Below, piece by piece: positions 1 through 12,670 of a DNA stretch of 12,670 nucleotides. The DNA is from a virus. Taxonomy: Duplodnaviria; Heunggongvirae; Uroviricota; Caudoviricetes. The stretch lies in the IMG/VR virus record IMGVR_UViG_2711768058_000009, positions 1 through 12,670 of that record; one strand, 5' to 3'. The first letter of the stretch is position 1. Each line of letters starts with the position of its first letter. The notes under the pieces were generated by a model. That model saw only the letters and a program-made list of their open reading frames with translations. It was not told where the DNA came from and did not search any database. The position numbers and the translations under genes are program-made.

Positions 1-1287
1 TCATCGTCTCGCTCTGTGGGGCATGTATGGGACACTTTCAGTTAACTCCTTATTGAGCAGTTCTATCTGCCCGATATTGTTATCTTTCATCCATGCTCCG
101 TAAACATTGAAAACCATTTGGGCGTTTGCATGTCCCATCTGGTTTGCGATAAAGCTTGGATTAGCTCCCGCCGATAATGCCCAGCAGGCATAAGTATGCC
201 TGGACTGATAGGCTTTCCTGTGCCGTAGTCCCGCCCGTCTCAATGCCGATGCCCATGAGTCTCTGATGGAGTCTGCTTTGTAGTGGTGGCCTGCCTGCTG
301 GCATTTTTTCACCAGTTGCGGATTAAAAACAAATGTGCATTCATGTCTTACGGTGCGTCCGAACTCCCGAAGTTTGACGTCAATTTGATATTGAGTACCA
401 AATCTTGTCATTTCAGCCTGACTTTTCAGGGTATCAACGGCTGGTTGAACAAGATGAATAACACGATCTGTTCCCGCTTCGGTTTTTGGTAGAGTGAACT
501 CACCGAGTTTTGTATAATTACGACGGATAGTCATTGTTTTAGCTTTTAAATCAATATCCTCCCAGGCAAGAGATATCAGCTCACCATGACGAATGCCTGT
601 GTATACTGCTAAAGACCACAGGTTTTTTGTTTGTTGATGGTGGCAAGCATCAATAAAACGAATGAATTCGTCATGTGTGAGCGGATCTGGTTCTGTTCTT
701 GATCTTTTTAATGGTGTAAGACCGTTAAACGGGTTTGATTCTGTGTATCCGTTGTCAGCTGCAAATTGAAACATACCTGCAATTGTCGTCATGTAGTAAT
801 TAACTGTAACTACAGATCGCCCTTTGACAGGAGTTGTCTTGCCGTTCGAGAGATTGTGATACCCGGTCAATAAATCTTTCCTGATAAAGAGTAAATCTTC
901 TTTTGTTACAGATGAAGCCAGTCGATTTTCCCCTATACGAGGGAGCATGTTTCTCACCACAGATTGATACCGATTGAGCGCGTTACCACCTATCTCGATT
1001 TTCTTCAGATCCAGCCATTTTTCGGCAAGTGCCTTAATGGTTATCTCCCTTTTCCCCAGACCGAAGTGTTTCAGATTTGGAGACTCAGGGAACTGCGCAG
1101 CGTAGTCGAAATTCCCCATTCTGATTGCAAAACAAACTGAAGTCCTGAGTTCGCCTGCAATCTTCCGGTTTTTGGCTGTGTCAGGAATACCGAGGTTTTC
1201 TCTGACACGTTTGCCGTTATAGTGAAACCATATGCGGAGTGAGCCGCCATGGTTTTCAACGCCTGTTGGGTATGATGTGTTACTCAT
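1..1287 (-). CDS. int: Tyrosine-type site-specific integrase (phage integrase family), complete, 428 aa; the attachment site would lie just left of the window
   Basis: Full ORF with stop at 1-3. C-terminal region has the R...HxxR...Y catalytic pattern (e.g. RHTYACW). RBS GGGAGG 4 nt upstream of the ATG at 1287. Sits next to an excisionase-like gene. Confidence 0.9.
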   Translation of the reverse strand: MSNTSYPTGVENHGGSLRIWFHYNGKRVRENLGIPDTAKNRKIAGELRTSVCFAIRMGNFDYAAQFPESPNLKHFGLGKREITIKALAEKWLDLKKIEIGGNALNRYQSVVRNMLPRIGENRLASSVTKEDLLFIRKDLLTGYHNLSNGKTTPVKGRSVVTVNYYMTTIAGMFQFAADNGYTESNPFNGLTPLKRSRTEPDPLTHDEFIRFIDACHHQQTKNLWSLAVYTGIRHGELISLAWEDIDLKAKTMTIRRNYTKLGEFTLPKTEAGTDRVIHLVQPAVDTLKSQAEMTRFGTQYQIDVKLREFGRTVRHECTFVFNPQLVKKCQQAGHHYKADSIRDSWASALRRAGLRHRKAYQSRHTYACWALSAGANPSFIANQMGHANAQMVFNVYGAWMKDNNIGQIELLNKELTESVPYMPHRARR

Positions 1288-1320
1288 TAAACCTCCCAGA
1301 CGTCCAGGAGCATTAACAGG

Positions 1321-1575
1321 TTAACCGGAACTTGCATTTTTGGCACCTGGTTGTTTCTGGTTTTTTATCCACCGCATAATTGCATCTATGTTGTACAGGC
1401 ATTCACTGTTTGGTTTTGGCTCTCCATCCACAGAGAAGTGGATATATTCCCTTCCTAACATCCATGATGTTCTGCGTGCTCGCTCGATAGTGCCTGATTT
1501 TAATCCTGTTGCAGCAATTAAGATGCTTTCAGCGCACCATTCACTGGGTGTTATCTGATAGATAATTTGTTGCAT
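1321..1575 (-). CDS. xis: Excisionase-like small DNA-binding protein (Xis position), about 84 aa from the ATG at 1575; the track ORF starts at a TTG at 1590
   Basis: Small ORF immediately upstream of int on the same strand. Shows the xis-like pattern (ITPSEW...RR..W, basic patches). AAGG 7 nt upstream of the ATG at 1575. Confidence 0.6.
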   Translation of the reverse strand: MQQIIYQITPSEWCAESILIAATGLKSGTIERARRTSWMLGREYIHFSVDGEPKPNSECLYNIDAIMRWIKNQKQPGAKNASSG

Positions 1576-1632
1576 AGAATTGCCTTGCAACCGCCGCCAC
1601 TATAGCTGGTGGACGGCGATCAGGGTTGAACA

Positions 1633-4077
1633 TTAAAAATCAGCTTGACTCGGGATCAGTTTTTGCCAGATTGCTGACACGTATTTTGCCTGGTAACGGG
1701 CGTCATCAAGTGCATTATGGCGCTCACCTTCGAATGGAATAGTCGTTCTGGCATCGAAATCTATCACCAGTCCCAGAGCAACCATCGTTCGTACATCACG
1801 ATCGTTGTTGTAGCGCCACGGACAGGGGATCCCCTGTCGTTCATATGAACGGCGTAAAATTACGTTGTCGAAGTTGGCTCCATTTCCCCACACCTGAACA
1901 AAAAATTCACCGGAGTTTTCGGCGATAAACTCCCTGAACTGCAACAGCGCGTCATCCAACGGGATTTCATTGGTAAGAATGGCGGATTGTGCTTCGCGTG
2001 ACTGTTTCAGCCACCACTTAATGGTGTCCCGATCAATGACTCCGCCAGCAGTTTCCAGATCGATAGTCTTACTAAATTCCGGTCCCATATCTCCGGTTTG
2101 CGGATCGAAAAATATTGCACCTATTGAGATGATCGGGGCATCAGGATTTTTTCCCATGGTTTCAAGGTCGATCATTAGATGGTCACACGTCCTGCTGGTG
2201 GATGTGATTTCGTGATGACCGTTCACCTTAATTGGGTGATCTGCCGTCTCGCCAGTTTCATTATCGCTATCGTGATGCTGATTGCCGCCAGTGTTCTCCT
2301 TGTGTGGATGTTCAGCGCCTTCCATTTCCTCCGGATCATCTTTCTGAACTTCAACCTGATTCTCTTCATCGAATGTTTCCTGGTATGTTGTGTCGTCCAT
2401 CACCGCGCCACAGTCAGGACAGTTACCGCCGCTGGTCTGACCATAGGCGGTGCAAAATTTTTCCACTTCCTGTTGCGCTACTGGTTCAAGAAGTTTCGTT
2501 TCTGGCTCGTTTTGTCGCGCATTTGGGCTGTTTTGTTCTGCATTTTGGTCGTTCTGTTCCGTTTCTTGCTGGTTCTGGTTCACAGAATCGCGGGTTTCAA
2601 TCCCCTTCACCCATTTCGGATCATTCGGGTCGCTAATCCCTTCAACAAATTCTCCACGAGAAGCAGCCAGTAACTTGTCGGCATCAACAGGATTTTGGGG
2701 CGGAATGTTTTTCCGGGCTTCATGGAGTTCTGACCGCAGTTTCTGATATTTCGCATCAACAGAATTTACCTGTGACTGAGCATCCAGCGGCTGCGTGTCC
2801 TGATGATGTTCAGTTGCATCCGGTTCCACTGTTTCAGCCGTTGCCTGTTCATCTGCCATTGCGCAAGATGGTTGCGGTTTTTTTTCATCATCCTGTTTTT
2901 CTTCTTCTGTTACACGCTGCGGCATCGGGGCAGAGGAGCGACCGCAGGCAATATCCACGATTTCCGGATCAGGGTTGGCATGATCGGTTTCAGTCAGTAC
3001 TTTGTTCAGATATTCAGTGACGTGTGCGGGGATGACCTCGATCCCAATTGGTGCTTCTTTTACGGACGCAACCACGATGGCGCGGGAATAATCCAGCCCG
3101 CCAGGCATGGTGATGAATTTGTCGCGGAAAACAGAAAAGGGCGATTTATTTTCAGCGATAATTTCCTCGATACGTTTAGCGTGTGCCGGATGAAGGTTAT
3201 AAATGTCCACGTCCATTGAACGAGCTAGTACGCCAGTGGCTACGTCGCGCGCCAGTGACGTCAGATCGTGAACGAAACCTTCGCCGCGATCAGTGAGGTT
3301 CCCGCCGCCAGCATTAGCGCCGGAAGCCGTGCGCGTGATGCGTGAAATACGATTTCCTTTCATCCACTCTTTTGTCAGCAGACCGCGATCGGTGTAGTCA
3401 GCGTTCAGGTATGATTCGATAAAAGAGGTCATCAGTCCCAGGTCTGAATTTACTGGGGCTGGGAAAACTTTGTCAGTGTCTCGCACCAGTTTGTATAAAT
3501 CCCGAATTTCCAGCGGCCCCAGTTGAGCTGCTTTATTTGAAATGGCACGGGTTGTAACCGTAGGGAGTTCTTCATCCAGTGCACTATGCAATGCCCGAAG
3601 TTCTTCCCGTGAAACGTGCGTTACCGGTTTCTCGCTGCCGTGTTGTGCAAGCCAGCGAACGGGCAGTTCCTGACCAGAAATCGGCAGGAGCATACCATCC
3701 TCAATCTCTGTCATATCTTCGCCGTTGACGTTGGTATTGTCAGTGCTGGCTGGTTTGTGCTGCGAAGAGGAAGAGGGCGCGCTAAATATCATTGTGATGC
3801 CATCTTCCCCGCCTTTTTCATATCGATTGCAGAATTCGGTATCAAACACGCCTTCCGGTGGAAGGTCATTCACAACGGGTAAATGGACACGGACGGGTTT
3901 TTTAAAGTCGTCTTCATCATAATCGTTGTCATCCATTGCAGTAATGCAGCGGGAGATAGCAACAGATAATTTTTTTGCTGTAGTCCAGTAAAAACCACCT
4001 TTAATTCCCAGGCGTTTTCTGACTTTGTCATTTTTTGCTTCGCAATATAGTGCAAATTCTTCTTTATCAGTGCTCAT
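1633..4077 (-). CDS. Large 814-aa protein: N-terminal domain of unknown function, acidic Q/N/E/D-rich linker with one CxxC, C-terminal DEDDh (DnaQ-like) 3'-5' exonuclease domain
   Basis: Long uninterrupted ORF. The three exonuclease motifs are visible in the C-terminal 190 aa: [26 protein letters not shown] 7 nt upstream of the ATG at 4077. Occupies the slot between xis and the early-left genes where lambdoid phages carry exo/bet or recE/recT. Confidence 0.85.
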
Positions 4078-4191
4078 TGATAAACCTCATAACTATTTTA
4101 AGGTTGTATGAACCCCTGCCATTTCAGGCATGCTTAATCAGTTGGTATGGCGTTAATATGGCTGGTGGGTTATCCAGCCGGTGTTTCGTTA

Positions 4192-4353
4192 TTACAGAGA
4201 TACTTTTTTTAACGGGAGGCATTCGCCGGAAAATTTTTGCTCATCTCTTGCCTGAAGGCAGGTTGCCTTACTGTCATAAATTCCGGTAATCATATTCTGT
4301 GACTCACCTGCTGTAAGAAAAACCGTCATCACCAGTGCAAATGCCGAAGTCAT
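4192..4353 (-). CDS. Small hypothetical protein, 53 aa, with a hydrophobic signal-peptide-like N-terminus (MTSAFALVMTVFLTAG...)
   Basis: Not in the ORF track (under 60 aa). The ATG at 4353 overlaps the TGA of the upstream ORF (ATGA, translational coupling). GGAGA 6 nt upstream. Confidence 0.35.
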   Translation of the reverse strand: MTSAFALVMTVFLTAGESQNMITGIYDSKATCLQARDEQKFSGECLPLKKVSL

Positions 4354-4538
4354 CGCTGTTCTCCAAAAATGCCAAGTTGAAGAAGAGCAATTCTTGAAAG
4401 TATGGAATTATCATTCAGAAGATAAGGCTCATATTTCCTCATATTAATGGCATCATCAGTGAAGTCTTTATTACTGAGCTGAATGCCAATATTAAAACAA
4501 CCTTCAGACGTATTAACGTTTGGTAATAACGTTTCCAT
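4350..4538 (-). CDS. Small hypothetical protein, 62 aa
   Basis: ORF with GAGG 8 nt upstream of the ATG at 4538. Its stop overlaps the start of the next small ORF. AT-rich composition suggests an acquired moron. Confidence 0.4.
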   Translation of the reverse strand: METLLPNVNTSEGCFNIGIQLSNKDFTDDAINMRKYEPYLLNDNSILSRIALLQLGIFGEQR

Positions 4539-4713
4539 TATCGCGTCCTCAACAATGAATTTTGTGATGCAGTGCCTGGTGCCTCCAGGTGACGTTAGCC
4601 AGTTAACAATTAACGCCGGATACAGAGCATTCCCGTTACGCCCGTAAAAGACCGCTTGTTTTAACTGTTCCGCGTGCGCTGAGCCGCATTCACCGCATCA
4701 CAAAATTCACTTT

Positions 4714-4766
4714 AAAAAAGGCGGCAGAGCAGTTACGGAGTAAAACTGGTACCGCCAAACGTCACC
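4714..4766 (-). terminator. Candidate intrinsic terminator for leftward transcription: GGCGGUA/UGCCGCC stem followed by U6
   Basis: Minus-strand RNA would read GGCGGUACC...CUGCCGCC then UUUUUU (plus-strand A6 at 4714-4719). The loop is long, so stability is uncertain. Confidence 0.35.
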
Positions 4767-4905
4767 AGAAAATGGATAACAGAGGGCGTTGCAGCGTGGT
4801 TGTCTCTTAAGCGTATGGTCAACCTGACAACCCGGTGTACTCAACGGGGAAGGAATAACCACGCCATACTTACCGCCGCGCCATTTCGCGGATTGCCACA
4901 ACCGG

Positions 4906-4967
4906 AAGCGCACGGTCGAATTAAATTTAACGACACCGTACAGTGAGACGAACTTCACCGTGCGCTT
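4906..4967. repeat. Perfect 11-bp inverted repeat (AAGCGCACGGT / ACCGTGCGCTT) around a 40-nt loop that contains the palindrome TTAAATTTAA
   Basis: Arms read directly at 4906-4916 and 4957-4967. Lies in a roughly 470-bp stretch with no convincing ORF on either strand. Confidence 0.6.
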
Positions 4968-5009
4968 TCGTGTTGTGTGCCTGCTTTTAACCACGTCAGG
5001 CGAGGTGGT

Positions 5010-5038
5010 ATCCTTAAAATCACCACTGTTTTAAGGAT
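5010..5038. promoter_or_regulatory. 10-bp perfect inverted repeat ATCCTTAAAA-N9-TTTTAAGGAT, operator-like, just upstream of the plus-strand membrane ORF
   Basis: Read directly from the sequence. The stem is AT-rich, so it is more likely a protein-binding site than a terminator. It overlaps the stop of the minus ORF and sits 11 nt before the ATG at 5049. Confidence 0.4.
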
Positions 5039-5615
5039 TCATTAAGCAATGTCGCAACCACCAATAAATCCGCTTAAGAACATGAAAATTGATTACTGGT
5101 ATAAAGCGCTTACAGTTGTTGGCGCTGCGTTGTTTGTCTTTAATGGAACGTCTTTTTTTGACAGATATCCCGTTGTTCCATTGGCTTTTTTGTCCGCCGG
5201 CATCTTTTTTATTGGTTTGGGAGAGTGGATTAACCACCCTCTCAAAGTGAGATTTATTGGTCCCGGAGTCTGGGCTCGCGGATATAACCGTTCTTCGTGC
5301 GCACTCGGTATCATCTTCGATATACTTGGTTGTTGCCTGATTGTTACAGGAGTCGTCAAGTTCTTCTGATGTAAAACCGCAAATGGGGCACGCAGAGGGA
5401 ATTTTGAAAAGCGTTTCACCGGGTTCCAGAACAAAATTTTCTGCGGTCTGATTTTGCTTCTCATATTTGTGCTCCGCATCATTGCGAGAGCACATTCTTA
5501 TTCTGAGCGCCTGTTTAAACTCACTGAAGCTGAGGGCTTCTTCGCCTTCGGCAAGGCCTTCGAAGTATTCTTCGTAAGCCTTTTCCATGATTGTGTCGAA
5601 ATCCATATCACTCAT
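5031..5615 (-). CDS. Hypothetical protein; N-terminal 80 aa acidic and helical-looking, C-terminal part low-complexity; true extent uncertain
   Basis: ORF open from the ATG at 5615 to the stop at 5031. The N-terminal part (MSDMDFDTIMEKAYEEYFEGLAEGEE...) looks protein-like. The C-terminal part is exactly codon-antisense to the membrane ORF and K/N/Q/R-rich. The ATG overlaps the stop of the upstream 51-aa ORF. Confidence 0.4.
   Translation of the reverse strand: MSDMDFDTIMEKAYEEYFEGLAEGEEALSFSEFKQALRIRMCSRNDAEHKYEKQNQTAENFVLEPGETLFKIPSACPICGFTSEELDDSCNNQATTKYIEDDTECARRTVISASPDSGTNKSHFERVVNPLSQTNKKDAGGQKSQWNNGISVKKRRSIKDKQRSANNCKRFIPVINFHVLKRIYWWLRHCLMNP
5049..5369 (+). CDS. Small integral membrane protein, 106 aa, about 3 predicted transmembrane helices; candidate superinfection-exclusion or abortive-infection moron
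   Basis: Three hydrophobic segments of about 20 aa separated by charged loops. AT-rich. Transcribed opposite to the surrounding leftward operon, as accessory exclusion genes often are. Lies entirely antisense to the minus ORF 5031..5615, so only one may be real. Confidence 0.45.
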   Translation: MSQPPINPLKNMKIDYWYKALTVVGAALFVFNGTSFFDRYPVVPLAFLSAGIFFIGLGEWINHPLKVRFIGPGVWARGYNRSSCALGIIFDILGCCLIVTGVVKFF

Positions 5616-5763
5616 CTGAGTTTCTTTCCAGCCAGCGACGCGCACCAGCTTCGGTTTTAAACGTTTTGCTTCTGGTATACGTCATGGCGGTGAATGTGCC
5701 GTCCTGGTTGGGGAACACACCGCATACCAGAGATTCGTTGTTGCCAAGATTGAGCGTATCCAT
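5608..5763 (-). CDS. Small hypothetical protein, 51 aa, first gene of the leftward early operon
   Basis: Not in the ORF track. GAGG 7 nt upstream of the ATG at 5763. Stop overlaps the next gene's start (ATGAGTGA). Sequence looks protein-like (…TFKTEAGARRWLERNSDE). Confidence 0.4.
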   Translation of the reverse strand: MDTLNLGNNESLVCGVFPNQDGTFTAMTYTRSKTFKTEAGARRWLERNSDE

Positions 5764-5938
5764 GTTGACCTCATTTCCCCTTAACGCCGGGTAGCGGAAC
5801 TTAAAAACCTGCTGCGCTGCTATTCAAAGTTATCCCGCCGTCATGTTCATACGCCTCGGGCTGGCTACTTAACCCCTGACCACTGCCGGGTAACTCGAGG
5901 TATTGCCCTGCATTCTGTGGGGCGGAGTGGGTGGTAGG

Positions 5939-5988
5939 TATATAATGTACTTTTCGTTCACTGTTGTAAAGTACTTTGAGTACATTTT
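5939..5988 (-). promoter_or_regulatory. pL-like leftward promoter (TTTACA -17- CATTAT on the minus strand) overlapped by operator-like GTAC-core motifs
   Basis: Motifs ATGTACT (5945-5951), AGTACT (5970-5975) and CTTTGAGTACAT (5974-5985). The last is the exact reverse complement of ATGTACTCAAAG found right of the repressor gene. Confidence 0.4.
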
Positions 5989-6060
5989 GTGTGTAAAAAA
6001 ATGAGATGGGATAAAGTGAAGCACAAACCCGGAGGGTGATGCTACCGGATTTATGCTGGT

Positions 6061-6480
6061 TTAAGAGGCTTTTTGTTTTTTCTTTCGTGCTAACTCTTCG
6101 TAAATTGCATTGTACTTCTGTTTTTTCTCCTCAAGAGTTTTTAAAAGTTCATCTGTCTCACTGTCAGGGAGCTCGTCCAGAAGGTCAATGATGATTTTTT
6201 GTCTTGGATTTAACTCCTGATAGAAACGTACCTGTCCACCTTCTTCAGTATCCTCTCCCAAAAGATAGGTTGGTGTTGTTCCTATGAGTGTTGCTAATTC
6301 CCTTAATTTCTCTCGGCGAGGAATTGTTTCGCCATTAAACCATTTGCTAACCGCTTTTGGTGTTAATTTCATTCGACGGGCAATTTCTGCCTGCCTTCCA
6401 TGTTGTTCATAACCAGCGTTATCACAGGCTAGCGCAAGCCTGCTGGCGAACTCTTTACGCGCTTTATCTTCATGAACCAT
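6061..6480 (-). CDS. Prophage repressor, 139 aa: N-terminal XRE-family helix-turn-helix, C-terminal coiled-coil-like region, no S24 peptidase domain (non-cleavable, RacR-like)
   Basis: HTH signature (QAEIARRMKLTPKAVSKWFNGETIP). Divergent from a Cro-like gene. No Shine-Dalgarno sequence before the ATG, and a CTGACA -17- TATCAT promoter places the transcription start at about the ATG (leaderless, like lambda cI from pRM). Confidence 0.8.
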   Translation of the reverse strand: MVHEDKARKEFASRLALACDNAGYEQHGRQAEIARRMKLTPKAVSKWFNGETIPRREKLRELATLIGTTPTYLLGEDTEEGGQVRFYQELNPRQKIIIDLLDELPDSETDELLKTLEEKKQKYNAIYEELARKKKQKAS

Positions 6481-6559
6481 AAGTTCAATGATATTCGCTC
6501 TTGGATGTACTGTCAGTTCTGTTATAGCATGTACTCAAAGTTCACATTATGAGGATGAT
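6481..6559. promoter_or_regulatory. OR-like divergent promoter/operator region between the repressor and the Cro-like gene
   Basis: ATGTACT at 6505-6511 and 6529-6535. The 12-mer ATGTACTCAAAG (6529-6540) is mirrored left of the repressor. The leaderless pRM-like promoter on the minus strand overlaps these motifs. Confidence 0.5.
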
Positions 6560-6814
6560 ATGAACCAGAAAACACTTGAAGATGTAATCAAAACTGTTCG
6601 CGTTTCTGTTGTGGCCGACGTTTGTGGTGTCAGCCAAAGAGCAATCTACAAATGGATGGATAACGGAAAATTGCCTCGCACAGAATATACCGGCGAAACA
6701 AATTACGCTGAAAAAATCGCTCTTGCATCAAACGGATTATTTTCTGCCGATGCAATTTTAACTATTGGCAGGAATAAAACTACTACGAAAAAGCTGATGG
6801 GAGTTGATTCATGA
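6560..6814 (+). CDS. Cro-like (Cro/CI-type HTH) small regulator, 84 aa from the ATG at 6560
   Basis: GAGGA 4 nt upstream of the ATG at 6560. HTH-like segment (VADVCGVSQRAIYKWMDNGKLP). Divergent from the repressor. Stop overlaps the start of the next gene (ATGA). Confidence 0.7.
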   Translation: MNQKTLEDVIKTVRVSVVADVCGVSQRAIYKWMDNGKLPRTEYTGETNYAEKIALASNGLFSADAILTIGRNKTTTKKLMGVDS

Positions 6815-7233
6815 AAATCAAGCATGAGCATATCGAATCAGTGCTGTTAGCTATGGCTGCTGCAAAAGGGCAGGCATGGGTCGCTAACGCCATTACTGAG
6901 GAATATCTGCGCCATGGGGGAAGTGAATTGCCCCTCGTACCAGGCAGGGACTGGAACAATCAGCAGAATATCTATCACCGTTGGTTGAAAGGTGAAACGA
7001 AAGCGCAAAGGGAAAAAATTCAGAAACTGATCCCTGCGGTTCTGGCAATTCTTCCGCGCGAGCTGCGTCACAGGCTAAGTATTTACGACACTCTGGAACG
7101 CCGTGCATTACTGGCGGCGCAGGAAGCGTTGAGTACGGCAATTGATGCACATGATGATGCAGTCCAGGCCGTTTACCGGAAAGCGTATTTCAGCGACGGC
7201 GGGTCATCCGGCGAGTCTGTTGTGGTGCATTGA
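6811..7233 (+). CDS. YdaT-like protein, 140 aa, in the CII position of a Rac-type immunity region
   Basis: Translationally coupled to the Cro-like gene. The order repressor / Cro-like / this gene / DUF1376 matches the Rac racR-ydaS-ydaT-ydaU arrangement. Family assignment is from memory. Confidence 0.7.
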   Translation: MKIKHEHIESVLLAMAAAKGQAWVANAITEEYLRHGGSELPLVPGRDWNNQQNIYHRWLKGETKAQREKIQKLIPAVLAILPRELRHRLSIYDTLERRALLAAQEALSTAIDAHDDAVQAVYRKAYFSDGGSSGESVVVH

Positions 7234-7319
7234 TATTTATGCCAGACCTCTGCTGATTCTGTTGATTGGGGAATCACAGAATATCACCAGAGGATGGTTC
7301 GTCACAAGATGAGGCAATT

Positions 7320-8333
7320 ATGGCCGCATTACCATACATGCAACTGTACATAGCTGATTACCTGGCTGACACCATGCATTTGTCCGCAGAGGAGCACGGC
7401 GCGTATTTGTTGCTGATGTTCAATTACTGGCAAACAGGGAAACCAATACCAAAAAACAGACTGGCAAAAATCGCCCGTCTGACTAACGAGCGATGGGCTG
7501 ATGTAGAACCATCCTTGCGGGAGTTTTTTTGCGATAACGGCGACGAATGGGTGCATCTTCGGGTTGAGGAAGATTTGGCATCAGTCAGGGAAAAATTAAC
7601 CAAAAAATCGGCCGCAGGAAAAGCATCTGTTCAGGCCAGAAGAAACAGAAAGGAAGCAGATGTTAAAACAAAACACGAGGGAAATTTAACAGGTGTTCAA
7701 ACAGATGTTGGAGTGGCGTTTGAACATTATGCCAACACAAAGGCAACTAATAAAGATACAGATCTAAAAGAATTAAACCCCACACATAACGCGCACGTGC
7801 GCGAGAGTATTCCGACCAGTGAGTTGAATGGTGCGCCGTTGCAGACAGCTGCTCCCGAATACCTGGACGGACTTAGCGAACCCATCGGAAAATTTCCGAT
7901 GACTGGTGACTGGCATCCGTCGCCGGATTTTCGACGACGGGCGGCGCTGTGGGGAGTGGCTCAGCCGGAGCCAGAATTTACACCTGCTGAACTTGCCGCC
8001 TTCCGGGACTACTGGGCAGCGGAGGGGAAAGTTTTTACGCAGGTTCAGTGGGAGCAGAAATTCGCCCGTCACGTAAATCACGTCAGGGCGCAGGTTAAAC
8101 CAGTCAGTAAGGGGGTAAACCATGCGGCAGCAGCATCTGGAACCGCATCACGGGCAGTTCAGGAAATTCGGGCAGCACGTGAACAGTGGGAGCGGGAAAA
8201 CGGATTTGTCAGCGACGGAAACGGCGTGGAAGCTGTGGGAACTCATGGGGGAGGTTTATTCAAACCGCTGGACCCGGAAGAACGGTTCCGCACCTCCGAA
8301 GCTCTGGATTGCCCAGATTGGCGCGATGACTGA
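7320..8333 (+). CDS. DUF1376 (YdaU-like) replication initiation protein, O-protein analogue, 337 aa from the ATG at 7320
   Basis: N-terminal signature LYIADYLADTMHLSAEEHGAYLLLMFNYW fits the DUF1376 pattern. GAGG 6 nt upstream of the ATG at 7320; the track ORF starts at an upstream TTG. Sits in the O position before a P-like gene. Confidence 0.75.
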   Translation: MAALPYMQLYIADYLADTMHLSAEEHGAYLLLMFNYWQTGKPIPKNRLAKIARLTNERWADVEPSLREFFCDNGDEWVHLRVEEDLASVREKLTKKSAAGKASVQARRNRKEADVKTKHEGNLTGVQTDVGVAFEHYANTKATNKDTDLKELNPTHNAHVRESIPTSELNGAPLQTAAPEYLDGLSEPIGKFPMTGDWHPSPDFRRRAALWGVAQPEPEFTPAELAAFRDYWAAEGKVFTQVQWEQKFARHVNHVRAQVKPVSKGVNHAAAASGTASRAVQEIRAAREQWERENGFVSDGNGVEAVGTHGGGLFKPLDPEERFRTSEALDCPDWRDD

Positions 8334-8787
8334 GCAGCAAATCCGGCAGGTCTGTCGGCAGTGCATGGACCGTTGCCGGGCGGGTGAAACATGGCCTCCT
8401 GACCTGGCTGAGTTTGTGGCGCTGATTTCGGAAAGCGGAGCCAATCCATTTGGTCTTACGGTGGATGCCGTGATGGAAGAGTACCGGCGCTGGCGCAATG
8501 AATCCTGGCGGTACGACGGGAGTGATAAATACCCGTGGCCACAGCCTGTGCTGTACCACATTTGCCTCGAGATGCGCACCAGAGGGATTGAACGTCAGAT
8601 GACTGAAAGTGAGCTGAAACGACTTGCAGAACGACTGTTGGCCAAATGGGCAAAGAATGTTGGTAACGGCATGAGTGTTCCGCCAGTGCGACGACAACTG
8701 GAAGGGCCAAAACACCCGCCAGGGCCAACGCCAATTGAGTTACTGAAACAGGAATATGAGCGCCGGAAAGCGGCTGGTTTTGTCTGA
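8122..8787 (+). CDS. Lambda replication protein P-like helicase loader, 221 aa
   Basis: Clear similarity to the lambda P central and C-terminal region (…YPWPQPVLYHICLEMRTRGIERQMTESELKRLAERLL… versus lambda …YPWKSNAHYWLVTNLYQNMRANALTDAELRRKAADEL…). Strong RBS AAGGGGG 6 nt upstream of the ATG at 8122. Overlaps the 3' end of the upstream gene by 212 nt in another frame; alternative starts are 8245 and 8326. Confidence 0.7.
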   Translation: MRQQHLEPHHGQFRKFGQHVNSGSGKTDLSATETAWKLWELMGEVYSNRWTRKNGSAPPKLWIAQIGAMTEQQIRQVCRQCMDRCRAGETWPPDLAEFVALISESGANPFGLTVDAVMEEYRRWRNESWRYDGSDKYPWPQPVLYHICLEMRTRGIERQMTESELKRLAERLLAKWAKNVGNGMSVPPVRRQLEGPKHPPGPTPIELLKQEYERRKAAGFV

Positions 8788-8820
8788 ATTTGAGAAATGA
8801 TTTTGTCGGAGGAAATTTTA

Positions 8821-9534
8821 ATGGAAACCGTTTTTGACGCACTGAAAGCACTGAAAAGAGCCTCTTCACAGGAGGTGTCGGCCCGCCTTGGAATCAGCCG
8901 CGAAGATGCTGTCAACGAGCTGTGGAAGCTGAAACGCCGTGGTGAAGCAGATAACAAGGGGTCGATGTGGTGGCTGACGATTGAGGCAACTGAAGCGGCC
9001 ACAAAAACCACTGCAGAGATGCTGATTAACGCGATTGAACAGCATGGTCCTCAGTCGGCTGACGAACTGGCGTTAATGTTCGGGATTACCTCCCGCCGGG
9101 CGAATTCATCACTGGCGATGGCAATCAGCAAAGGTCGTCTGATTCGCGTTAATCAGGACGGTAAATATCGTTACTGCATACCGGGCGATAATTTACCGAC
9201 AGAGCCGAAAGCTGCATCGGTAACGGAAACCGATGGTAAAGCCTTTCCTCAGCCAGCAGGTGTTGCGTTACCAGTCCGGGAAGCGGAAACACAGGAAGAA
9301 ATTAAAACTGAAAGTGTGGCGGTCACAGTGCAGTCACAGCCGTCGTTCACCAGAAAGCATCCGGATAGTCTGATTTTACCATCGCTGCATGTGGCTAACC
9401 GCGAACTGCGCCGGGCAAAAGGTCAGGTTCAGAAGTGGGAGCGAGTCTGTGCTGCGCTGCGTGAGCTGAACAAGCACCAGGATATTGTTCGACAGATTAC
9501 TGATTCATCCTGTTGTGTTACATCAGAAAAGTGA
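8821..9534 (+). CDS. Hypothetical prophage protein with two tandem winged-helix-like segments and a C-terminal coiled coil (possibly DUF1627-like), 237 aa
   Basis: GGAGG 8 nt upstream of the ATG at 8821. Internal duplication of an HTH-like segment. Family assignment is tentative. Confidence 0.7.
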
Positions 9535-9549
9535 TTGCAGGGGACGCTG

Positions 9550-10053
9550 ATGGCAAGAGTATTTACACCAGAAGAGCGGGAAAAAATTAAGGGGCAGGTT
9601 GTTGAACTCGTACGCCAGAGCGGTCGCGAGACGTTACGGCAACTGGAAGCTAAAACAGGTGCAACAAGATATCTGATGAGCGTTCTCGCCAGAGAGCTGG
9701 TTGCCAGTGGTGATGTATACAACTCTGGCTACGGGTTATTTCCGTCTGAACAGGCTCGTAAAGACTGGCAAAACGCCCGCAAAAAACTTTCAAGGGCAAA
9801 GGTGAAGAAACCGGCTGTGGTTGATCCGGACCTTATCTGGTCATTACCAGACGGAGAAATACGCCGCTACGACAGGCGCCTGAACATAATCTGTCGCGAG
9901 TGCCGGAATAGTGAAGTTATGCAGCGAGTGCTGGCGTTTTATCAGGGGGTGGGGTCAGGAGGTGGTGCTGTGAGTGAAATTAGCTATCAGGCTTCAATTG
10001 CCGCTGGCATTCGCATCAAAGGAGAGGAGCATGGAAATAAAACCAGAAGATGA
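9550..10053 (+). CDS. Hypothetical protein, 167 aa, with an N-terminal winged-helix-like segment
   Basis: AGGGGA upstream of the ATG at 9550. Tightly packed after the preceding gene. Confidence 0.65.
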   Translation: MARVFTPEEREKIKGQVVELVRQSGRETLRQLEAKTGATRYLMSVLARELVASGDVYNSGYGLFPSEQARKDWQNARKKLSRAKVKKPAVVDPDLIWSLPDGEIRRYDRRLNIICRECRNSEVMQRVLAFYQGVGSGGGAVSEISYQASIAAGIRIKGEEHGNKTRR

Positions 10054-10387
10054 GTTAAGTAATATTGTTTTATTTCCTGTAAAAGAGGATGACCCGCGTA
10101 ATCAGGTTAATTTTATTTATGAGCCATCGGAAAGACCATACTGCCATCACGCCTCTGTCCGGGTTGATGAAAAAGAGCGTCAGGTCCGGTGCAAAATATG
10201 CGGTGCGGTGGTGGAACCATTTGACTGGATGCTCTCTGTGGCGAAAAGAGAAACCAGACTGGCGGATGATGTAAAGCTATTGAGGCAGGAGGAACGGGAA
10301 AGGCGGAAAAATATAGAAAAGCTAATCCAGATTGAGCGTAACGCGAAAGCGCGGATACGCAGGGCGACAAAATCCAGAACTGAATAA
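10031..10387 (+). CDS. Hypothetical zinc-ribbon-like (C-HH…CxxC) protein with a basic coiled-coil tail, 118 aa
   Basis: GGAGAGGAG 3 nt upstream of the ATG at 10031. Overlaps the end of the upstream gene by 23 nt. Contains CHH…CKICG. Confidence 0.6.
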   Translation: MEIKPEDELSNIVLFPVKEDDPRNQVNFIYEPSERPYCHHASVRVDEKERQVRCKICGAVVEPFDWMLSVAKRETRLADDVKLLRQEERERRKNIEKLIQIERNAKARIRRATKSRTE

Positions 10388-10415
10388 TTAAATTTAGCTC
10401 TGTTAAAAATTTAAT
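10387..10415. repeat. AT-rich inverted repeat ATTAAATTT-N11-AAATTTAAT immediately after a stop codon
   Basis: Read directly from the sequence; 9-bp arms. The stem is all A/T, so it is more likely a protein-binding site than a terminator. Confidence 0.45.
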
Positions 10416-10451
10416 CCTTAACCGGAGGGATTTCTGCACTCTCAGAACATC

Positions 10452-10480
10452 AGGAGGCCGCCCGAAAGGGCGGTAGTTAA
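10452..10480 (+). promoter_or_regulatory. Structured translation-initiation region: AGGAGG, then a 6-bp GC stem with a GAAA tetraloop, then 7 nt to the ATG
   Basis: AGGAGG at 10452-10457. Stem CCGCCC/GGGCGG with GAAA loop at 10458-10473. ATG at 10481. The hairpin would shorten the effective distance between the Shine-Dalgarno sequence and the start codon. Confidence 0.45.
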
Positions 10481-10663
10481 ATGCGAAAGTTTAAAATAAT
10501 TATTGAAACGGGAATAGCCGGTGGAGATTTCGAGGATGAATTCGAAGTGGATGATGATGCGACGCCTGATGAAATACATGACGAAGCAAAAGATATTTTC
10601 TTTAACTACTGCAATTACTCATATTACGAAATAAAAGACGAAGAGGAAGAGCAAAATGGCTGA
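10481..10663 (+). CDS. Very acidic small protein, 60 aa (about 20 D/E versus 5 K/R)
   Basis: ORF MRKFKIIIETGIAGGDFEDEFEVDDDATPDE… Stop overlaps the start of the next small ORF (ATGGCTGA). Confidence 0.5.
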   Translation: MRKFKIIIETGIAGGDFEDEFEVDDDATPDEIHDEAKDIFFNYCNYSYYEIKDEEEEQNG

Positions 10664-10832
10664 TTTTGGTTCAACTAAATACAACGTCAGTTTTGAAGCA
10701 TGGCATGAACTGTTAATGGACTATGCAGAGTTACGTGGTGGCAGTGCTGCTGATGCTGAAGCATGGCGTGATGATTATGAAGCAGGAAAAACTCCGGTCG
10801 AAGCATATTGTGATGAGTGGGGCGATGAATGA
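10656..10832 (+). CDS. Acidic small protein, 58 aa
   Basis: Not in the ORF track (under 60 aa). MADFGSTKYNVSFEAWHELLMDYAELRGG… Start overlaps the upstream stop, and its own stop overlaps the ATG at 10829, so three genes are coupled. Confidence 0.45.
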   Translation: MADFGSTKYNVSFEAWHELLMDYAELRGGSAADAEAWRDDYEAGKTPVEAYCDEWGDE

Positions 10833-11344
10833 GCGAGATTAATTATCAGGAAGGGCATGAAACGGCAGGGCAGGCAAAACCAGTTGCATGGCGATATCGC
10901 TACGTGAAAAAAGACGTTACAGACTTTCAGGGGAAGCCGTGGGCTGGTGACTGGAAATATGTACCGACAAAAGAGGATTGTAACGACAGGCCGAACTATG
11001 AAATTCAGGCCTTATTCATCGGCCCGCCAGTCACGGTGACATCAGAAGGACTGGTTAAAGCCGTGCGCTTTTATGAACAGGTAAAGCGTGAGAATCCGCC
11101 AGTCGAAACAGGAGCATGGAAGGATGCTGTTGACTGGGTGCTCAGAGAGGCCTGCTGCGCTGCCATTCTGGGTAAAGCCGACAATCCACCAGCATCCGGC
11201 AATCAGGTTAGCGAATTAACAATGTGGGTTAAACGACTGGTCAGTCAACTGAAAAAAGCTCAGCCGGACTGCAAATTACCGGAGAAGGCGATGGATTACC
11301 TGAAACGAAATGGACTGATAAGCGTGGAGGATGTTTTACGATGA
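10829..11344 (+). CDS. Hypothetical prophage protein, 171 aa
   Basis: Clean ORF, translationally coupled to the upstream small genes. No family recognised with confidence. Confidence 0.7.
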   Translation: MSEINYQEGHETAGQAKPVAWRYRYVKKDVTDFQGKPWAGDWKYVPTKEDCNDRPNYEIQALFIGPPVTVTSEGLVKAVRFYEQVKRENPPVETGAWKDAVDWVLREACCAAILGKADNPPASGNQVSELTMWVKRLVSQLKKAQPDCKLPEKAMDYLKRNGLISVEDVLR

Positions 11345-11390
11345 ATATTTAGACTAAAGAGTTTGTAACGCTATGTAAGTGATTTTTTCT

Positions 11391-11424
11391 GGTTTAGATA
11401 TTTATATGTCCGGCCAAATTGAGG
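11391..11424. repeat. Copy A of an imperfect direct repeat of about 35 bp (GGTTTAG…ATATTTA…TGTCCGGCCAAA)
   Basis: Aligns with 11662-11697 (GGTTTAG…ATATTTA…TGTGCCGGACAAA). Sits upstream of the small membrane ORF. Confidence 0.4.
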
Positions 11425-11464
11425 TGTGTTTAAATGTTATTGCACATTGATTGTAGGGGGAATA

Positions 11465-11644
11465 ATGAAAAACGCATTGCAGTTTTTGTTTGTTGCGTTC
11501 TGGTTGTTCGCATCATGTATGCCCATCATCTTCACAGCAAGGTATATGGAAAAAATTGATGTTTTGATATTAATGTTTGGACATATAAATGCCCTTTTTT
11601 TAGGGGTGTTCATGGCGGTCATGTGCATTGAATACTGGCGGTAA
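11465..11644 (+). CDS. Small hydrophobic membrane peptide, 59 aa, about 2 transmembrane helices
   Basis: GGGGG 4 nt upstream of the ATG at 11465. Very AT-rich. Sequence MKNALQFLFVAFWLFASCMPIIF…LFLGVFMAVMCIEYWR. Flanked by the direct repeats. Confidence 0.45.
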   Translation: MKNALQFLFVAFWLFASCMPIIFTARYMEKIDVLILMFGHINALFLGVFMAVMCIEYWR

Positions 11645-11661
11645 ATACAGCGAACGCCATT

Positions 11662-11697
11662 GGTTTAGTTGGATATTTACTGTGCCGGACAAAAACG
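11662..11697. repeat. Copy B of the direct repeat of about 35 bp, upstream of the hok locus
   Basis: Aligned by eye to copy A at about 70% identity with one 3-4 nt indel. Confidence 0.4.
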
Positions 11698-11698
11698 G

Positions 11699-11727
11699 TT
11701 TGCGGGGAAATCTTAGTTAAGTAGAAT
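11699..11727 (+). promoter_or_regulatory. Candidate promoter for the hok mRNA (weak -35 TTTGCG, 17-nt spacer, -10 TAGAAT)
   Basis: -10 TAGAAT at 11722-11727 is a 5/6 match to consensus. Position is appropriate for a long hok leader. Confidence 0.3.
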
Positions 11728-11789
11728 AACTGCGGGTGCTTGAGGCTATCTGTCTCAGGCATGAACACCAAAAGGCAGATAGAGAAAAG

Positions 11790-11855
11790 CCCCAGTTAAC
11801 ATTACGCGTCCTGCAAGACGCTTAACATTAATCTGAGGCCATATCTATGCGACAC
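11790..11855 (-). ncRNA. Predicted Sok-like antisense RNA; extent approximate
   Basis: Minus-strand promoter TTGACC (plus 11884-11889) -16- GCTAAT (plus 11862-11867) would fire leftward across the leader ORF's RBS and ATG (11835-11849), as in canonical hok/sok loci. Confidence 0.3.
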
Positions 11856-11906
11856 ATAGAGATTAGCCTCTTACGGACCGAAAGGTCAAGGAGAAGCAGG
11901 CTATGA
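11847..11906 (+). CDS. Short mok-like leader ORF, 19 codons, ending in an ATGA overlap with the hok start
   Basis: GAGG 8 nt upstream of the ATG at 11847. Stop TGA at 11904-11906 overlaps the hok ATG at 11903-11905. No long mok frame with an ATG/GTG/TTG start was found overlapping hok. Confidence 0.35.
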   Translation: MRHIEISLLRTERSRRSRL

Positions 11907-12058
11907 AGCAGCAAAAGGCGATGTTAATCGCCCTGATCGTCATCTGTTTAACCGTCATAGTGACGGCACTGGTAACGAGGAAAGACCTCTGCGAGGTACG
12001 AATCCGAACCGGCCAGACGGAGGTCGCTGTCTTCACAGCTTACGAACCTGAGGAGTAA
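11903..12058 (+). CDS. hok: Hok/Gef-family type I toxin, 51 aa (HokD/RelF-like membrane peptide)
   Basis: Translation MKQQKAMLIALIVICLTVIVTALVTRKDLCEVRIRTGQTEVAVFTAYEPEE is a hallmark Hok-family sequence, with an upstream leader ORF and antisense promoter. Confidence 0.9.
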   Translation: MKQQKAMLIALIVICLTVIVTALVTRKDLCEVRIRTGQTEVAVFTAYEPEE

Positions 12059-12066
12059 GAGACCAG

Positions 12067-12088
12067 GCGGGGGAGAAATCTCCCGCCA
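12067..12088 (+). other. GC-rich hairpin at the 3' end of the hok mRNA (GGCGGGGGAG…TCTCCCGCC)
   Basis: Stem of about 9 bp with no following U-tract. Hok mRNAs carry 3' structures involved in fold-back inhibition. Confidence 0.4.
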
Positions 12089-12225
12089 CCTCTGATGTGT
12101 CAGGCATCCTCAACGCACCCGCGCTTAACCCGCTTCGTCGGGTTTTGTTTTTTCCTGGCATTCTGGTTTACAATTCGCACGTCAGCCTGAACAACTGGCA
12201 CCTGCTGCGCCAGCAGAGAAAACCG

Positions 12226-12504
12226 ATGGCGCACGATACCAAGTTACACAATTCTGATAATTCAGCTGTCTTTGCCAGCAGGCACGGGCGGCGTTCCCGC
12301 ACATTCAAATCTGACTGGTTCCAGCATGACCCATGCACAGAAGAACAGGCCGAATGGTTAATTCAGTGCTACCGCAGGCGCGGATACGAGTTTCAGAAAG
12401 ACCTCAGCCTCGACCGACTGCACTGGATAATCTCTGTGAGGCTCCCTTACTCCGAGCGCCCACCGCGTCCATCCCGCACATTCCAGCAACGTATCTGGAG
12501 GTAA
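12226..12504 (+). CDS. Hypothetical protein, 92 aa from the ATG at 12226 (track ORF starts at a GTG at 12097); weak call
   Basis: Its stop TAA at 12502-12504 sits between a GGAGG and the GTG start of the next ORF, suggesting coupling. Composition is Arg/Pro-rich and the RBS is weak. Confidence 0.3.
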   Translation: MAHDTKLHNSDNSAVFASRHGRRSRTFKSDWFQHDPCTEEQAEWLIQCYRRRGYEFQKDLSLDRLHWIISVRLPYSERPPRPSRTFQQRIWR

Positions 12505-12505
12505 C

Positions 12506-12670
12506 GTGCGGGTATTACTTCGACCTGTTCTTGTGCCAGAACTCGGGCTGGTGATCGTTAAGCCGGGCCATGAATCCATGCCGGTATTCCAAAATACCCG
12601 GGTACTGGTGGAGCCGGAACCGAAAAGCATGCGTAATCTGCCGTCCGGGGTCGTTCCTGCCGTTCGCCAG
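12506..12670 (+). CDS. 5' part of a hypothetical protein that continues beyond the window (MRVLLRPVLVPELGLVIVKPGHESMPVFQ…)
   Basis: GGAGG 4 nt upstream of the GTG at 12506. Frame is open for 55 codons to the window edge. The frame is also open upstream, so the start is uncertain. Confidence 0.4.
   Translation, partial: MRVLLRPVLVPELGLVIVKPGHESMPVFQNTRVLVEPEPKSMRNLPSGVVPAVRQ

Follow-up and report, generated by a model that had tools for sequence, protein, structure and literature searches.

The small RNA DicF of the Qin prophage of Escherichia coli K-12 has been described, together with its processing signals, since 1989-1990, and both were re-examined in 2016-2023. In K-12, RNase E is needed for the 5' end of the 53-nt DicF and RNase III for that of a 190-nt species (PMC10448788), and the 3' end of DicF is made by Rho-independent termination (PMC5069750, PMC9438474). 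The DicF terminator yields ydfABC-dicF transcripts plus read-through ones that reach dicB (PMC10448788), and RNase III cleavage of the read-through RNA gives rise to a 72-nt form of DicF (PMC10448788, PMC5069750, PMC9438474). The Rac prophage of K-12 carries the annotated small RNA KilS directly upstream of kilR (Bar et al. 2021), in the same way as DicF precedes dicB.

We analyzed a stretch of 12,670 nucleotides from a virus of the class Caudoviricetes (IMG/VR record IMGVR_UViG_2711768058_000009, positions 1 to 12,670), referred to below as the window, with a focus on the segment at 4560-5030. An initial description made from the letters, the sequence-only reading, had presented this segment as ORF-poor and structured, and had offered three interpretations, namely a regulated terminator, an RNA-based processive antitermination element, or a small RNA. 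The literature on K-12 Qin DicF that served for comparison comprises the 1990 work, Balasubramanian et al. 2016 and Ragunathan et al. 2023. The segment is an already-known DicF locus with its processing signals, and an ordinary one. Judging by homology, we hold it highly probable that this is the dicF locus of a Qin/Rac-like prophage, encoding the 53-nt Hfq-dependent DicF along with the cis signals for its release from the leftward early transcript.

Gene order and comparison with the Qin prophage of K-12

The order of elements at the locus is repressor, ydfA, ydfB remnant, dicF, dicB, ydfD, recE-like exonuclease, xis and int, and, judging from the flanking ORFs, the locus belongs to the left arm of a lambdoid prophage of the Qin/Rac kind. 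The HTH repressor gene (6061-6480, minus strand) is followed by a promoter-like site, TTTACA-17-CATTAT (5942-5970, minus strand), which was detected by a promoter scan and is the putative start of the leftward operon. Next come ydfA (DUF1391; 5608-5763, minus strand; Pfam, 101.6 bits) and a ydfB-like remnant that starts near 5645 on the minus strand, where PHROG 2061 matches residues 3-47 of a 204-aa ORF; ydfB is marked as truncated by PGAP in the closest E. coli genome. The dicB gene (4350-4538, minus strand) encodes 62 aa, starts with the ATG at 4538 and scores 114 bits with Pfam DicB and 105 bits with NCBIfam NF049927. Its Shine-Dalgarno sequence GAGGA (4546-4550, minus strand) lies 3 nt past a long stem described below. 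The stop codon of dicB is overlapped by a ydfD-like DUF1482 gene (4192-4353, minus strand; Pfam PF07358, 53 bits), beyond which lies the RecE-like exonuclease gene (1633-4077, minus strand). Excisionase and integrase genes also flank the dicF locus, and divergent cro/YdaT/replication genes are found upstream.

From approximately 4990 down to dicB, the window is collinear with the ydfC-dicF-dicB intergenic DNA of K-12 Qin and about 90% identical to it; given this collinear alignment, the segment is therefore identified as that intergenic DNA. When K-12 Qin and four other prophages were aligned, nearly all columns from approximately 4920 to dicB were identical. The two loci share the same small RNA, the same order ydfA-(ydfB)-dicF-dicB-ydfD, the terminator and both long stems. 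They differ by three substitutions in the 53-nt DicF and by U6 in the window where K-12 has U5, and the variable inserts of the leader (4618-4671) and of the upstream hairpin's loop are not the same. In addition, upstream of approximately 4990, a block with an opposite-strand gene stands in place of ydfC and the 3' end of ydfB. This gene (5049-5369, plus strand), which encodes 106 aa, takes the place of K-12 ydfC and has 62 homologues with 35-100% identity over the aligned stretch. Its tblastn matches include phages mEp390 and Bcep176, and public gene calls put it on the plus strand. Beside it lies a 10-bp perfect inverted repeat, I6 (5010-5019 with 5029-5038; z = -2.9 and -3.4). The interval 5010-5369 is a neighbor outside the DicF module. 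A PADLOC search gave no match for the 106-aa protein, DicB or the YdfD-like protein.

The locus is widespread: of 5426 complete E. coli genomes, 4713 matched at least part of the query 4300-5300, mostly under a dicB annotation, and the best of them has only 93% identity over this stretch. In phage Tritos, DicF is annotated at the homologous place.

DicF and its terminator

The whole window was scanned at Rfam gathering thresholds, and the DicF family (RF00039) was matched at 4719-4770 on the minus strand over model positions 1-52 of 52 with 70.5 bits, compared to a gathering score of 48 (E = 3.3e-14). The covariance-model scan, which the sequence-only reading had put forward as a check, thus places DicF above the gathering score, and among the interpretations offered the small RNA was a correct one. 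The 53-nt form of DicF occupies 4719-4771 on the minus strand, and its alignment to K-12 DicF shows 3 differences within the 53 nt. The RNA is located within the leftward operon of a lambdoid prophage, with the start of dicB 180 nt downstream.

The 3' half of the RNA is a Rho-independent terminator, in which a U run comes after a GC-rich stem. According to the fold and the Rfam structure line, this intrinsic terminator (4714-4756, minus strand) consists of an interrupted stem at 4720-4756 and the U6 tract at 4714-4719, and the true 3' end of DicF probably lies within that tract. DicF with its terminator folds at -15.9 kcal/mol (z = -2.43). A simple terminator scan missed the structure because its loop is 9 nt long. 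The terminator-like hairpin with U6 that had been pointed out on the minus-strand transcript is thus DicF's own intrinsic terminator, inside the leftward operon. Since both terminated and read-through transcripts occur in K-12, the DicF terminator divides the operon.

The ACUCC loop of DicF is conserved. The duplex of DicF with ftsZ, predicted with the K-12 ftsZ leader (that of the host may differ), has -39.7 kcal/mol for the window allele compared to -38.5 kcal/mol for K-12 DicF. Shuffled sequences gave a mean of -31.8 with a standard deviation of 4.3, so that the whole-molecule energy is only about 1.8 standard deviations better.

Coding potential of the segment

By reading of the sequence and a repeat search, the segment was found to carry every feature listed in the sequence-only reading: the perfect 11-bp inverted repeat (4906-4916 with 4957-4967, 40 nt between the arms), the palindrome TTAAATTTAA (4921-4930), the CCGCG-N6-CGCGG sequence (4876-4891), and the minus-strand hairpin (4720-4756) with U6 directly behind it (4714-4719). 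The ORFs of at least 30 aa that overlap 4560-5030 are 4483-4647 (plus strand), 4707-4994 (minus strand), 4800-4946 (plus strand) and 4841-4936 (minus strand).

That the segment instead encodes a small protein, either the 95-aa product of the minus-strand ORF or the version of about 60 aa that is called in some phage annotations, is scarcely credible. The frame 4707-4994 does exist, with a GTG start, its first 51 residues match PHROG 8854 (E = 3.5e-26), and small CDSs are annotated at this place in phage HannyBb. However, among 100 unique homologous sequences collected from IMG/VR and annotated collections, the 95-aa ORF is intact in only one, which is the window itself. K-12-type copies are devoid of its start, and a difference in the length of a C run shifts the frame; about 60% of the homologues lack any minus-strand ORF of at least 40 aa. 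The variable sites are distributed over the codon positions as 11/8/10, compared to 8/4/13 in the dicB control, i.e., without a third-position bias. The frame also overlaps DicF, and neither PGAP nor the K-12 annotation calls anything here. The PHROG match is not independent evidence because PHROG families are built from predicted ORFs; given the loss of the ORF and the lack of third-position bias, it is taken to reflect repeated automatic ORF calls. The ORF that matches PHROG 8854 thus shows neither a conserved frame nor a coding pattern of substitutions. A conserved protein-coding gene, named beforehand as the observation that would speak against the sequence-only reading, was looked for in the segment with a negative outcome, in line with the claim that no conserved ORF is present.

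The hairpin upstream of DicF

The 11-bp repeat can be lengthened to 14 nt with 93% complementarity (4903-4916 with 4957-4970) and, if bulges are allowed, to 4897-4977. The resulting structure, hairpin A (4897-4977, minus strand; arms 4957-4977 and 4897-4916; repeats I1 and I7, and the fold), has about 20 bp, made up of the perfect 11-bp core and 8 more pairs across two 1-nt interruptions. The region 4893-4981 on the minus strand folds at -37 kcal/mol (z = -4.28), and none of 200 shuffled sequences folded as well.

Counting 190 nt back from the 3' end of DicF leads to 4903-4908, within the 3' arm of hairpin A, as follows from size arithmetic and homology. We infer that hairpin A is the RNase III substrate from which the 190-nt DicF precursor would gain its 5' end. 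Comparative data bear on this point. Among DicF-type sequences alone (n = 31), no covariation was found, hairpin A included (98.4% paired compared to 98.3% in shuffles), because the module is too conserved. When Rac/KilS-type copies were added, 5 pairs were changed on both sides, and the covariation score was 0.128 compared to 0.077 in shuffles (0 of 500 as high), with slid controls not exceeding 0.070. The Rac-type homologues bring compensatory changes of A-U to G-C and of G-C to U-A; it should be noted that this covariation comes from two or three independent lineages (Rac-type, L306).

The apical loop of hairpin A is hypervariable apart from a conserved UGUCGUUAAAUUU motif. The TTAAATTTAA palindrome is not conserved, and the alignment shows GTTAAATTTTCG in its place in K-12; a motif that overlaps it, GUUAAAUUU, is nearly invariant in the otherwise hypervariable loop. 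Such conservation could be explained by an internal promoter with TAAATT as the -10-like element, in which case a primary transcript would account for the species of about 190-200 nt, and the region would be a small RNA gene in its own right. The Rac variant CTGTTAAATT does read as an extended -10, located 7 nt upstream of the annotated 5' end of KilS, and, according to Bar et al. (PMC8175672), a promoter of its own can drive transcription of KilS. Conversely, the 190-nt DicF species of K-12 is lost when RNase III is missing, and an internal promoter was not detected there (PMC10448788). The DicF-type copies, including the window, have CGTTAAATT, without TG and without a recognizable -35, and the promoter scan showed nothing in the loop of hairpin A. 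We therefore regard a promoter in the loop as improbable and favor RNase III cleavage of hairpin A.

Between the presumed RNase III and RNase E cuts lies the leader of the 190-nt pre-DicF (4772-4896, minus strand), which has 95-99% column identity among the 100 unique homologues. It holds the CCGCG-N6-CGCGG hairpin at 4876-4891 and a pairing of 4794-4808 with 4850-4864. No covariation of this leader was found among DicF-type sequences; the helix 4794-4808/4850-4864 contains a compensatory change of G-C to U-A that is private to the window (alignment columns 137/205). The CCGCG hairpin alone folds no better than shuffles (z = -0.14), and the fold of 4790-4868 is at chance level (z = -0.89).

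The dicF-dicB leader

The strongest structure of the interval, which is absent from the sequence-only reading, is a long-range stem of 21 bp that pairs 4691-4711 with 4554-4574. It closes the structured dicF-dicB leader (4551-4715, minus strand), defined from the fold, RNAalifold and covariation. The 21 contiguous pairs enclose hairpins at 4672-4687, 4591-4617 and 4575-4589 as well as the variable insert at 4618-4671. The inverted repeats I3 and I5 (4652-4673 with 4712-4735) are mutually exclusive and need an insert specific to the window; because they are tied to that insert, they were treated as chance.

The leader (4530-4725, minus strand) folds with z = -4.50, and none of 200 shuffles was as good, so that the folding test proposed with the sequence-only reading separates three regions from shuffled sequences, namely 4893-4981, DicF with its terminator, and this leader. 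Given 21 diverse sequences, RNAalifold also arrives at the 21-bp stem and the three inner hairpins. Overall, 98% of the cells are paired, and 11 pairs are changed on both sides, compared to 1.3 in shuffles (0 of 500 as high) and 1-3 in slid controls. Thus, the compensatory base changes that were to be sought by alignment are seen in both long stems. Model R1 scores 171.4 bits on the leader of the window. When contigs were scanned with the 14-base pattern GGTGACNTTTGGCGG, the matches came from unrelated phyla and were due to chance.

A length of 72 nt, measured from the start of DicF, leads to approximately 4700, halfway along the 5' arm of the 21-bp stem (size arithmetic and homology). This placement points to the 21-bp stem as the RNase III substrate that would produce the 3' end of the 72-nt DicF and leave dicB with a short leader. 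Both long stems have the properties of an RNase III substrate, namely a nearly continuous duplex of about two helical turns (~20 bp) and pairing that is kept through compensatory changes, which in the case of hairpin A come from few lineages. Since both size-mapped ends fall inside them, the two long duplexes would be natural RNase III substrates beside DicF. The suggestion that the long repeats are regulated terminators gives way to this explanation, as RNase III processing stems account for them better.

The predicted leader stem reaches over GAGGA with 7 further weak pairs, and cleavage of the stem could accordingly act as a translational switch, in which the U tract of the terminator pairs with the Shine-Dalgarno sequence of dicB until RNase III frees it. 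For the window, the unpaired probability of the Shine-Dalgarno sequence is 0.19 in the full-length RNA compared to 0.71 in the cleaved 3' fragment. However, the switch was not reproduced in K-12 Qin (0.41 compared to 0.35) or in Rac kilR (0.68 compared to 0.50), and for this reason it is retained as a doubtful alternative, held with low confidence. Moreover, the extra pairs over GAGGA are mostly G-U, and a purine-rich Shine-Dalgarno sequence pairs with U tracts trivially.

Proposed release of DicF from the early transcript

In the following scheme, the RNase III cut sites were placed by the published RNA sizes (190 and 72 nt), and every processing step was carried over from K-12. Leftward transcription (PL-like, dicBp-type) would begin at a promoter downstream of the repressor gene and proceed through ydfA. 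RNase III would cut the hairpin at 4897-4977, which would give the species of about 190 nt, and an RNase E cut at 4771/4772 would generate the mature 5' end of DicF. Most transcripts would stop at the intrinsic terminator 4714-4756, yielding the 53-nt DicF. The read-through RNA is predicted to fold into the 21-bp stem 4691-4711/4554-4574 and to be cleaved there by RNase III, resulting in the 72-nt DicF and a separate dicB mRNA with a short leader. DicF would then base-pair with ftsZ and other mRNAs and repress them, and DicB would block division via MinC. A promoter scan for the start site of K-12 dicBp, the anchor for the published '813/814' cleavage position, found no site.

Stems cleaved by RNase III are familiar from phage early transcripts, such as the sites in T7 early mRNA, the lambda N leader and lambda sib. 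Like the stems of the window, these have about 20 bp and few breaks in the pairing, are located between cistrons of early polycistronic transcripts and contain RNase III-dependent ends. There is, however, no sequence relationship, and the window stems differ in that they flank a small RNA and would release it. An effect of the leader stem on downstream translation was tested for with its counterparts in K-12 Qin and Rac, with a negative result.

A different use of structured RNA in lambdoid early operons is represented by the nut (boxA/boxB) sites of lambda and put of HK022, and the segment could be an antitermination RNA of this type or a factor-controlled terminator that gates the delayed-early genes. 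The likeness to these systems is confined to the presence of structured RNA in an early operon. The possibility is raised by the intrinsic terminator itself, which is located inside an operon whose distal genes dicB, ydfD, recE, xis and int must still be expressed. In K-12, terminated and read-through transcripts indeed both occur (PMC10448788). Against this stands a search of 4400-5200 with Rfam at E values up to 5, which returned only DicF and a sub-threshold STnc100, without any antitermination family. The boxA-like matches are at the level of chance (10 compared to 9.0 expected), there is no boxB above chance, and no N-like protein was recognized among the leftward-operon ORFs scanned. Put elements adjoin the promoter, whereas the segment lies about 1 kb downstream of it. 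Finally, the long stems coincide with RNase III-dependent, i.e., nuclease-made, ends and not with termination control. Judged by Rfam families, boxA-like counts and N-like ORFs, nothing in the segment points to the nut or put type, and we consider antitermination or factor-controlled termination very improbable. Thus, of what had been proposed for the segment, the small RNA and the terminator were borne out, whereas RNA-based processive antitermination was not.

Relationship to KilS and STnc100

The DicF module resembles the kilS locus of Rac in several respects. Rac DNA is 77% identical to the leader of the window, beginning exactly at the tail of the terminator. KilS has a DicF-like terminator stem (UGGCGGnAUCAGUUUU...CCGCCCUUUUU), which is followed by a long-stem leader and then by a gene for a small FtsZ-directed division inhibitor, and its 5' end lies within the 3' arm of the hairpin A homologue that shows the compensatory changes. 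Conversely, hairpin A and the terminator are separated by an RNA body of about 76 nt in the KilS type compared to about 185 nt in the DicF type, KilS is devoid of the 5' seed found in DicF, the gene that follows is kilR instead of dicB, and a promoter of its own has been reported (PMC8175672). In Rac-like loci, the DicF model stays below the gathering score. DicF and KilS thus appear to share one conserved frame that holds different RNA bodies. The paper that defines KilS makes no mention of DicF (PMC8175672).

The leader of the window (4506-4721, minus strand) also matches STnc100 (Rfam RF02076) in a local search, with 31.8 bits compared to a gathering score of 47 (E = 5e-5), and the K-12 Qin and Rac-like loci tested likewise do not reach the gathering score. 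The resemblance to STnc100/PasD consists of an outer long stem starting with GGUGAAU, a CACCnGGAGGCACCnGGCAC hairpin beside the 3' arm and a multi-branch interior. A hairpin motif of 20 nt is common to STnc100 copies and the dicF-dicB leader. In the reverse direction, a model built from dicF/kilS leaders only matched all tested Rfam STnc100 copies with 38-61 bits, with the loci having been fetched via the shared motif. True STnc100 copies differ in context: they form tandem arrays beside phage tRNA genes and are not located upstream of a division inhibitor gene; unlike the window leader, copies are also found downstream of stx2 (PMC12370729). Taken from sequence and structure comparisons, these results support the view that the dicF-dicB leader may be a distant relative of STnc100.

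We tentatively suggest, as a possibility with the balance of probability against it, that hairpin A, the DicF-type terminator stem and the leader form a conserved Qin/Rac 'sRNA slot' in which RNA bodies are swapped and from which they are released by RNase III, the leader being one branch of a wider STnc100/PasD superfamily made up of structured prophage RNAs.

Implications

An ORF-less structured gap beside dicB in a lambdoid prophage is to be read as DicF with its processing signals. In this analysis, each of the published ends that depend on RNase III is assigned to a specific stem, and both stems have comparative support. The frame shared by DicF and KilS, together with the fact that DicF is unmentioned in the paper on KilS, provides a testable route for KilS biogenesis, and the kinship with STnc100 leads to a hypothesis on a cis role of the widespread STnc100/PasD elements. 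The shared DicF/KilS slot and the relationship to STnc100 are modest, testable leads. If the slot is real, RNase III would be at least partly responsible for the 5' end that KilS has in K-12 Rac, and STnc100/PasD modules would be nuclease-processing cassettes, beyond trans-acting small RNAs.

Genes outside the dicF locus

The left end of the prophage (1-4077, minus strand) encodes an integrase with Arm-DNA-bind_2 and Phage_integrase domains (1-1287), an excisionase of the DUF1233 type (1321-1590), and a RecE-like exonuclease of 814 aa with an Rv2179c-like 3'-5' exoribonuclease domain at its C-terminus (1633-4077), all on the minus strand. On the plus strand, a hok/sok-type toxin-antitoxin locus at 11734-12058 was identified by both Rfam and Pfam: the sok model (RF01794) scored 106.7 bits at 11734-11905, and a Hok/Gef protein of 51 aa is encoded at 11903-12058 (Pfam, 82.9 bits).

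A 106-aa ORF (5049-5369, plus strand) lies within the leftward operon but on the opposite strand, in the place of K-12 ydfC, and its position parallels that of sieB in Rac. A perfect 10-bp inverted repeat (5010-5019/5029-5038) overlaps its likely ribosome binding site. The product, judged by eye, is hydrophobic, and has 62 homologues of ~100-110 aa in Escherichia, Scandinavium, Yersinia, Herminiimonas and Reinekea, none of which belongs to a Pfam family; phages mEp390 and Bcep176 also match in tblastn, and PADLOC gave no match for the protein. The gene is crossed in antisense by a 204-aa ORF (5031-5645, minus strand) that matches PHROG 35040, with its 47 N-terminal residues matching the YdfB-like PHROG 2061. 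This ORF is probably a ydfB remnant reading through rather than a real protein; in the most similar E. coli genome, PGAP annotates ydfB as truncated.

RNA elements shared with KilS/kilR

Comparison of the dicF locus (4551-4981, minus strand) to the KilS and kilR leader region of K-12 Rac (2747-3110 of locus L343, minus strand) reveals three common elements, namely, a long hairpin upstream of the small RNA (hairpin A), a terminator stem, and a leader enclosed by a long stem. The KilS 5' end lies within the 3' arm of the Rac hairpin A homologue, which suggests either that this end is made by RNase III processing or that the hairpin loop carries an extended -10 (CTGTTAAATT). The apical loop of hairpin A contains the motif UGUCGUUAAAUUU (about 4922-4934, minus strand), which is nearly invariant across 50 DicF-type and KilS-type sequences, even though unrelated inserts take the place of the remaining loop sequence. 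This motif may serve for RNase E entry, as an Hfq or AU-rich site, or as a -10-like element.

The dicF-dicB leader (4551-4715, minus strand) is a relative of Rfam STnc100 that scores below threshold. True STnc100 copies, which form tandem arrays of 2-4 adjoining phage tRNA genes (loci L255, L265, L266, L279 and L288), have the motif CACCnGGAGGCACCnGGCAC in common with the leader, and are detected at 38-61 bits by a model made from dicF/kilS leaders. In the leader interior, a hypervariable insert (4618-4671, minus strand; homologous columns of alignment A2) occurs in at least five unrelated versions among the homologues, and the window version folds into its own hairpin. Given that the stems around the insert are invariant, these observations suggest that the leader interior is a tolerated insertion site.
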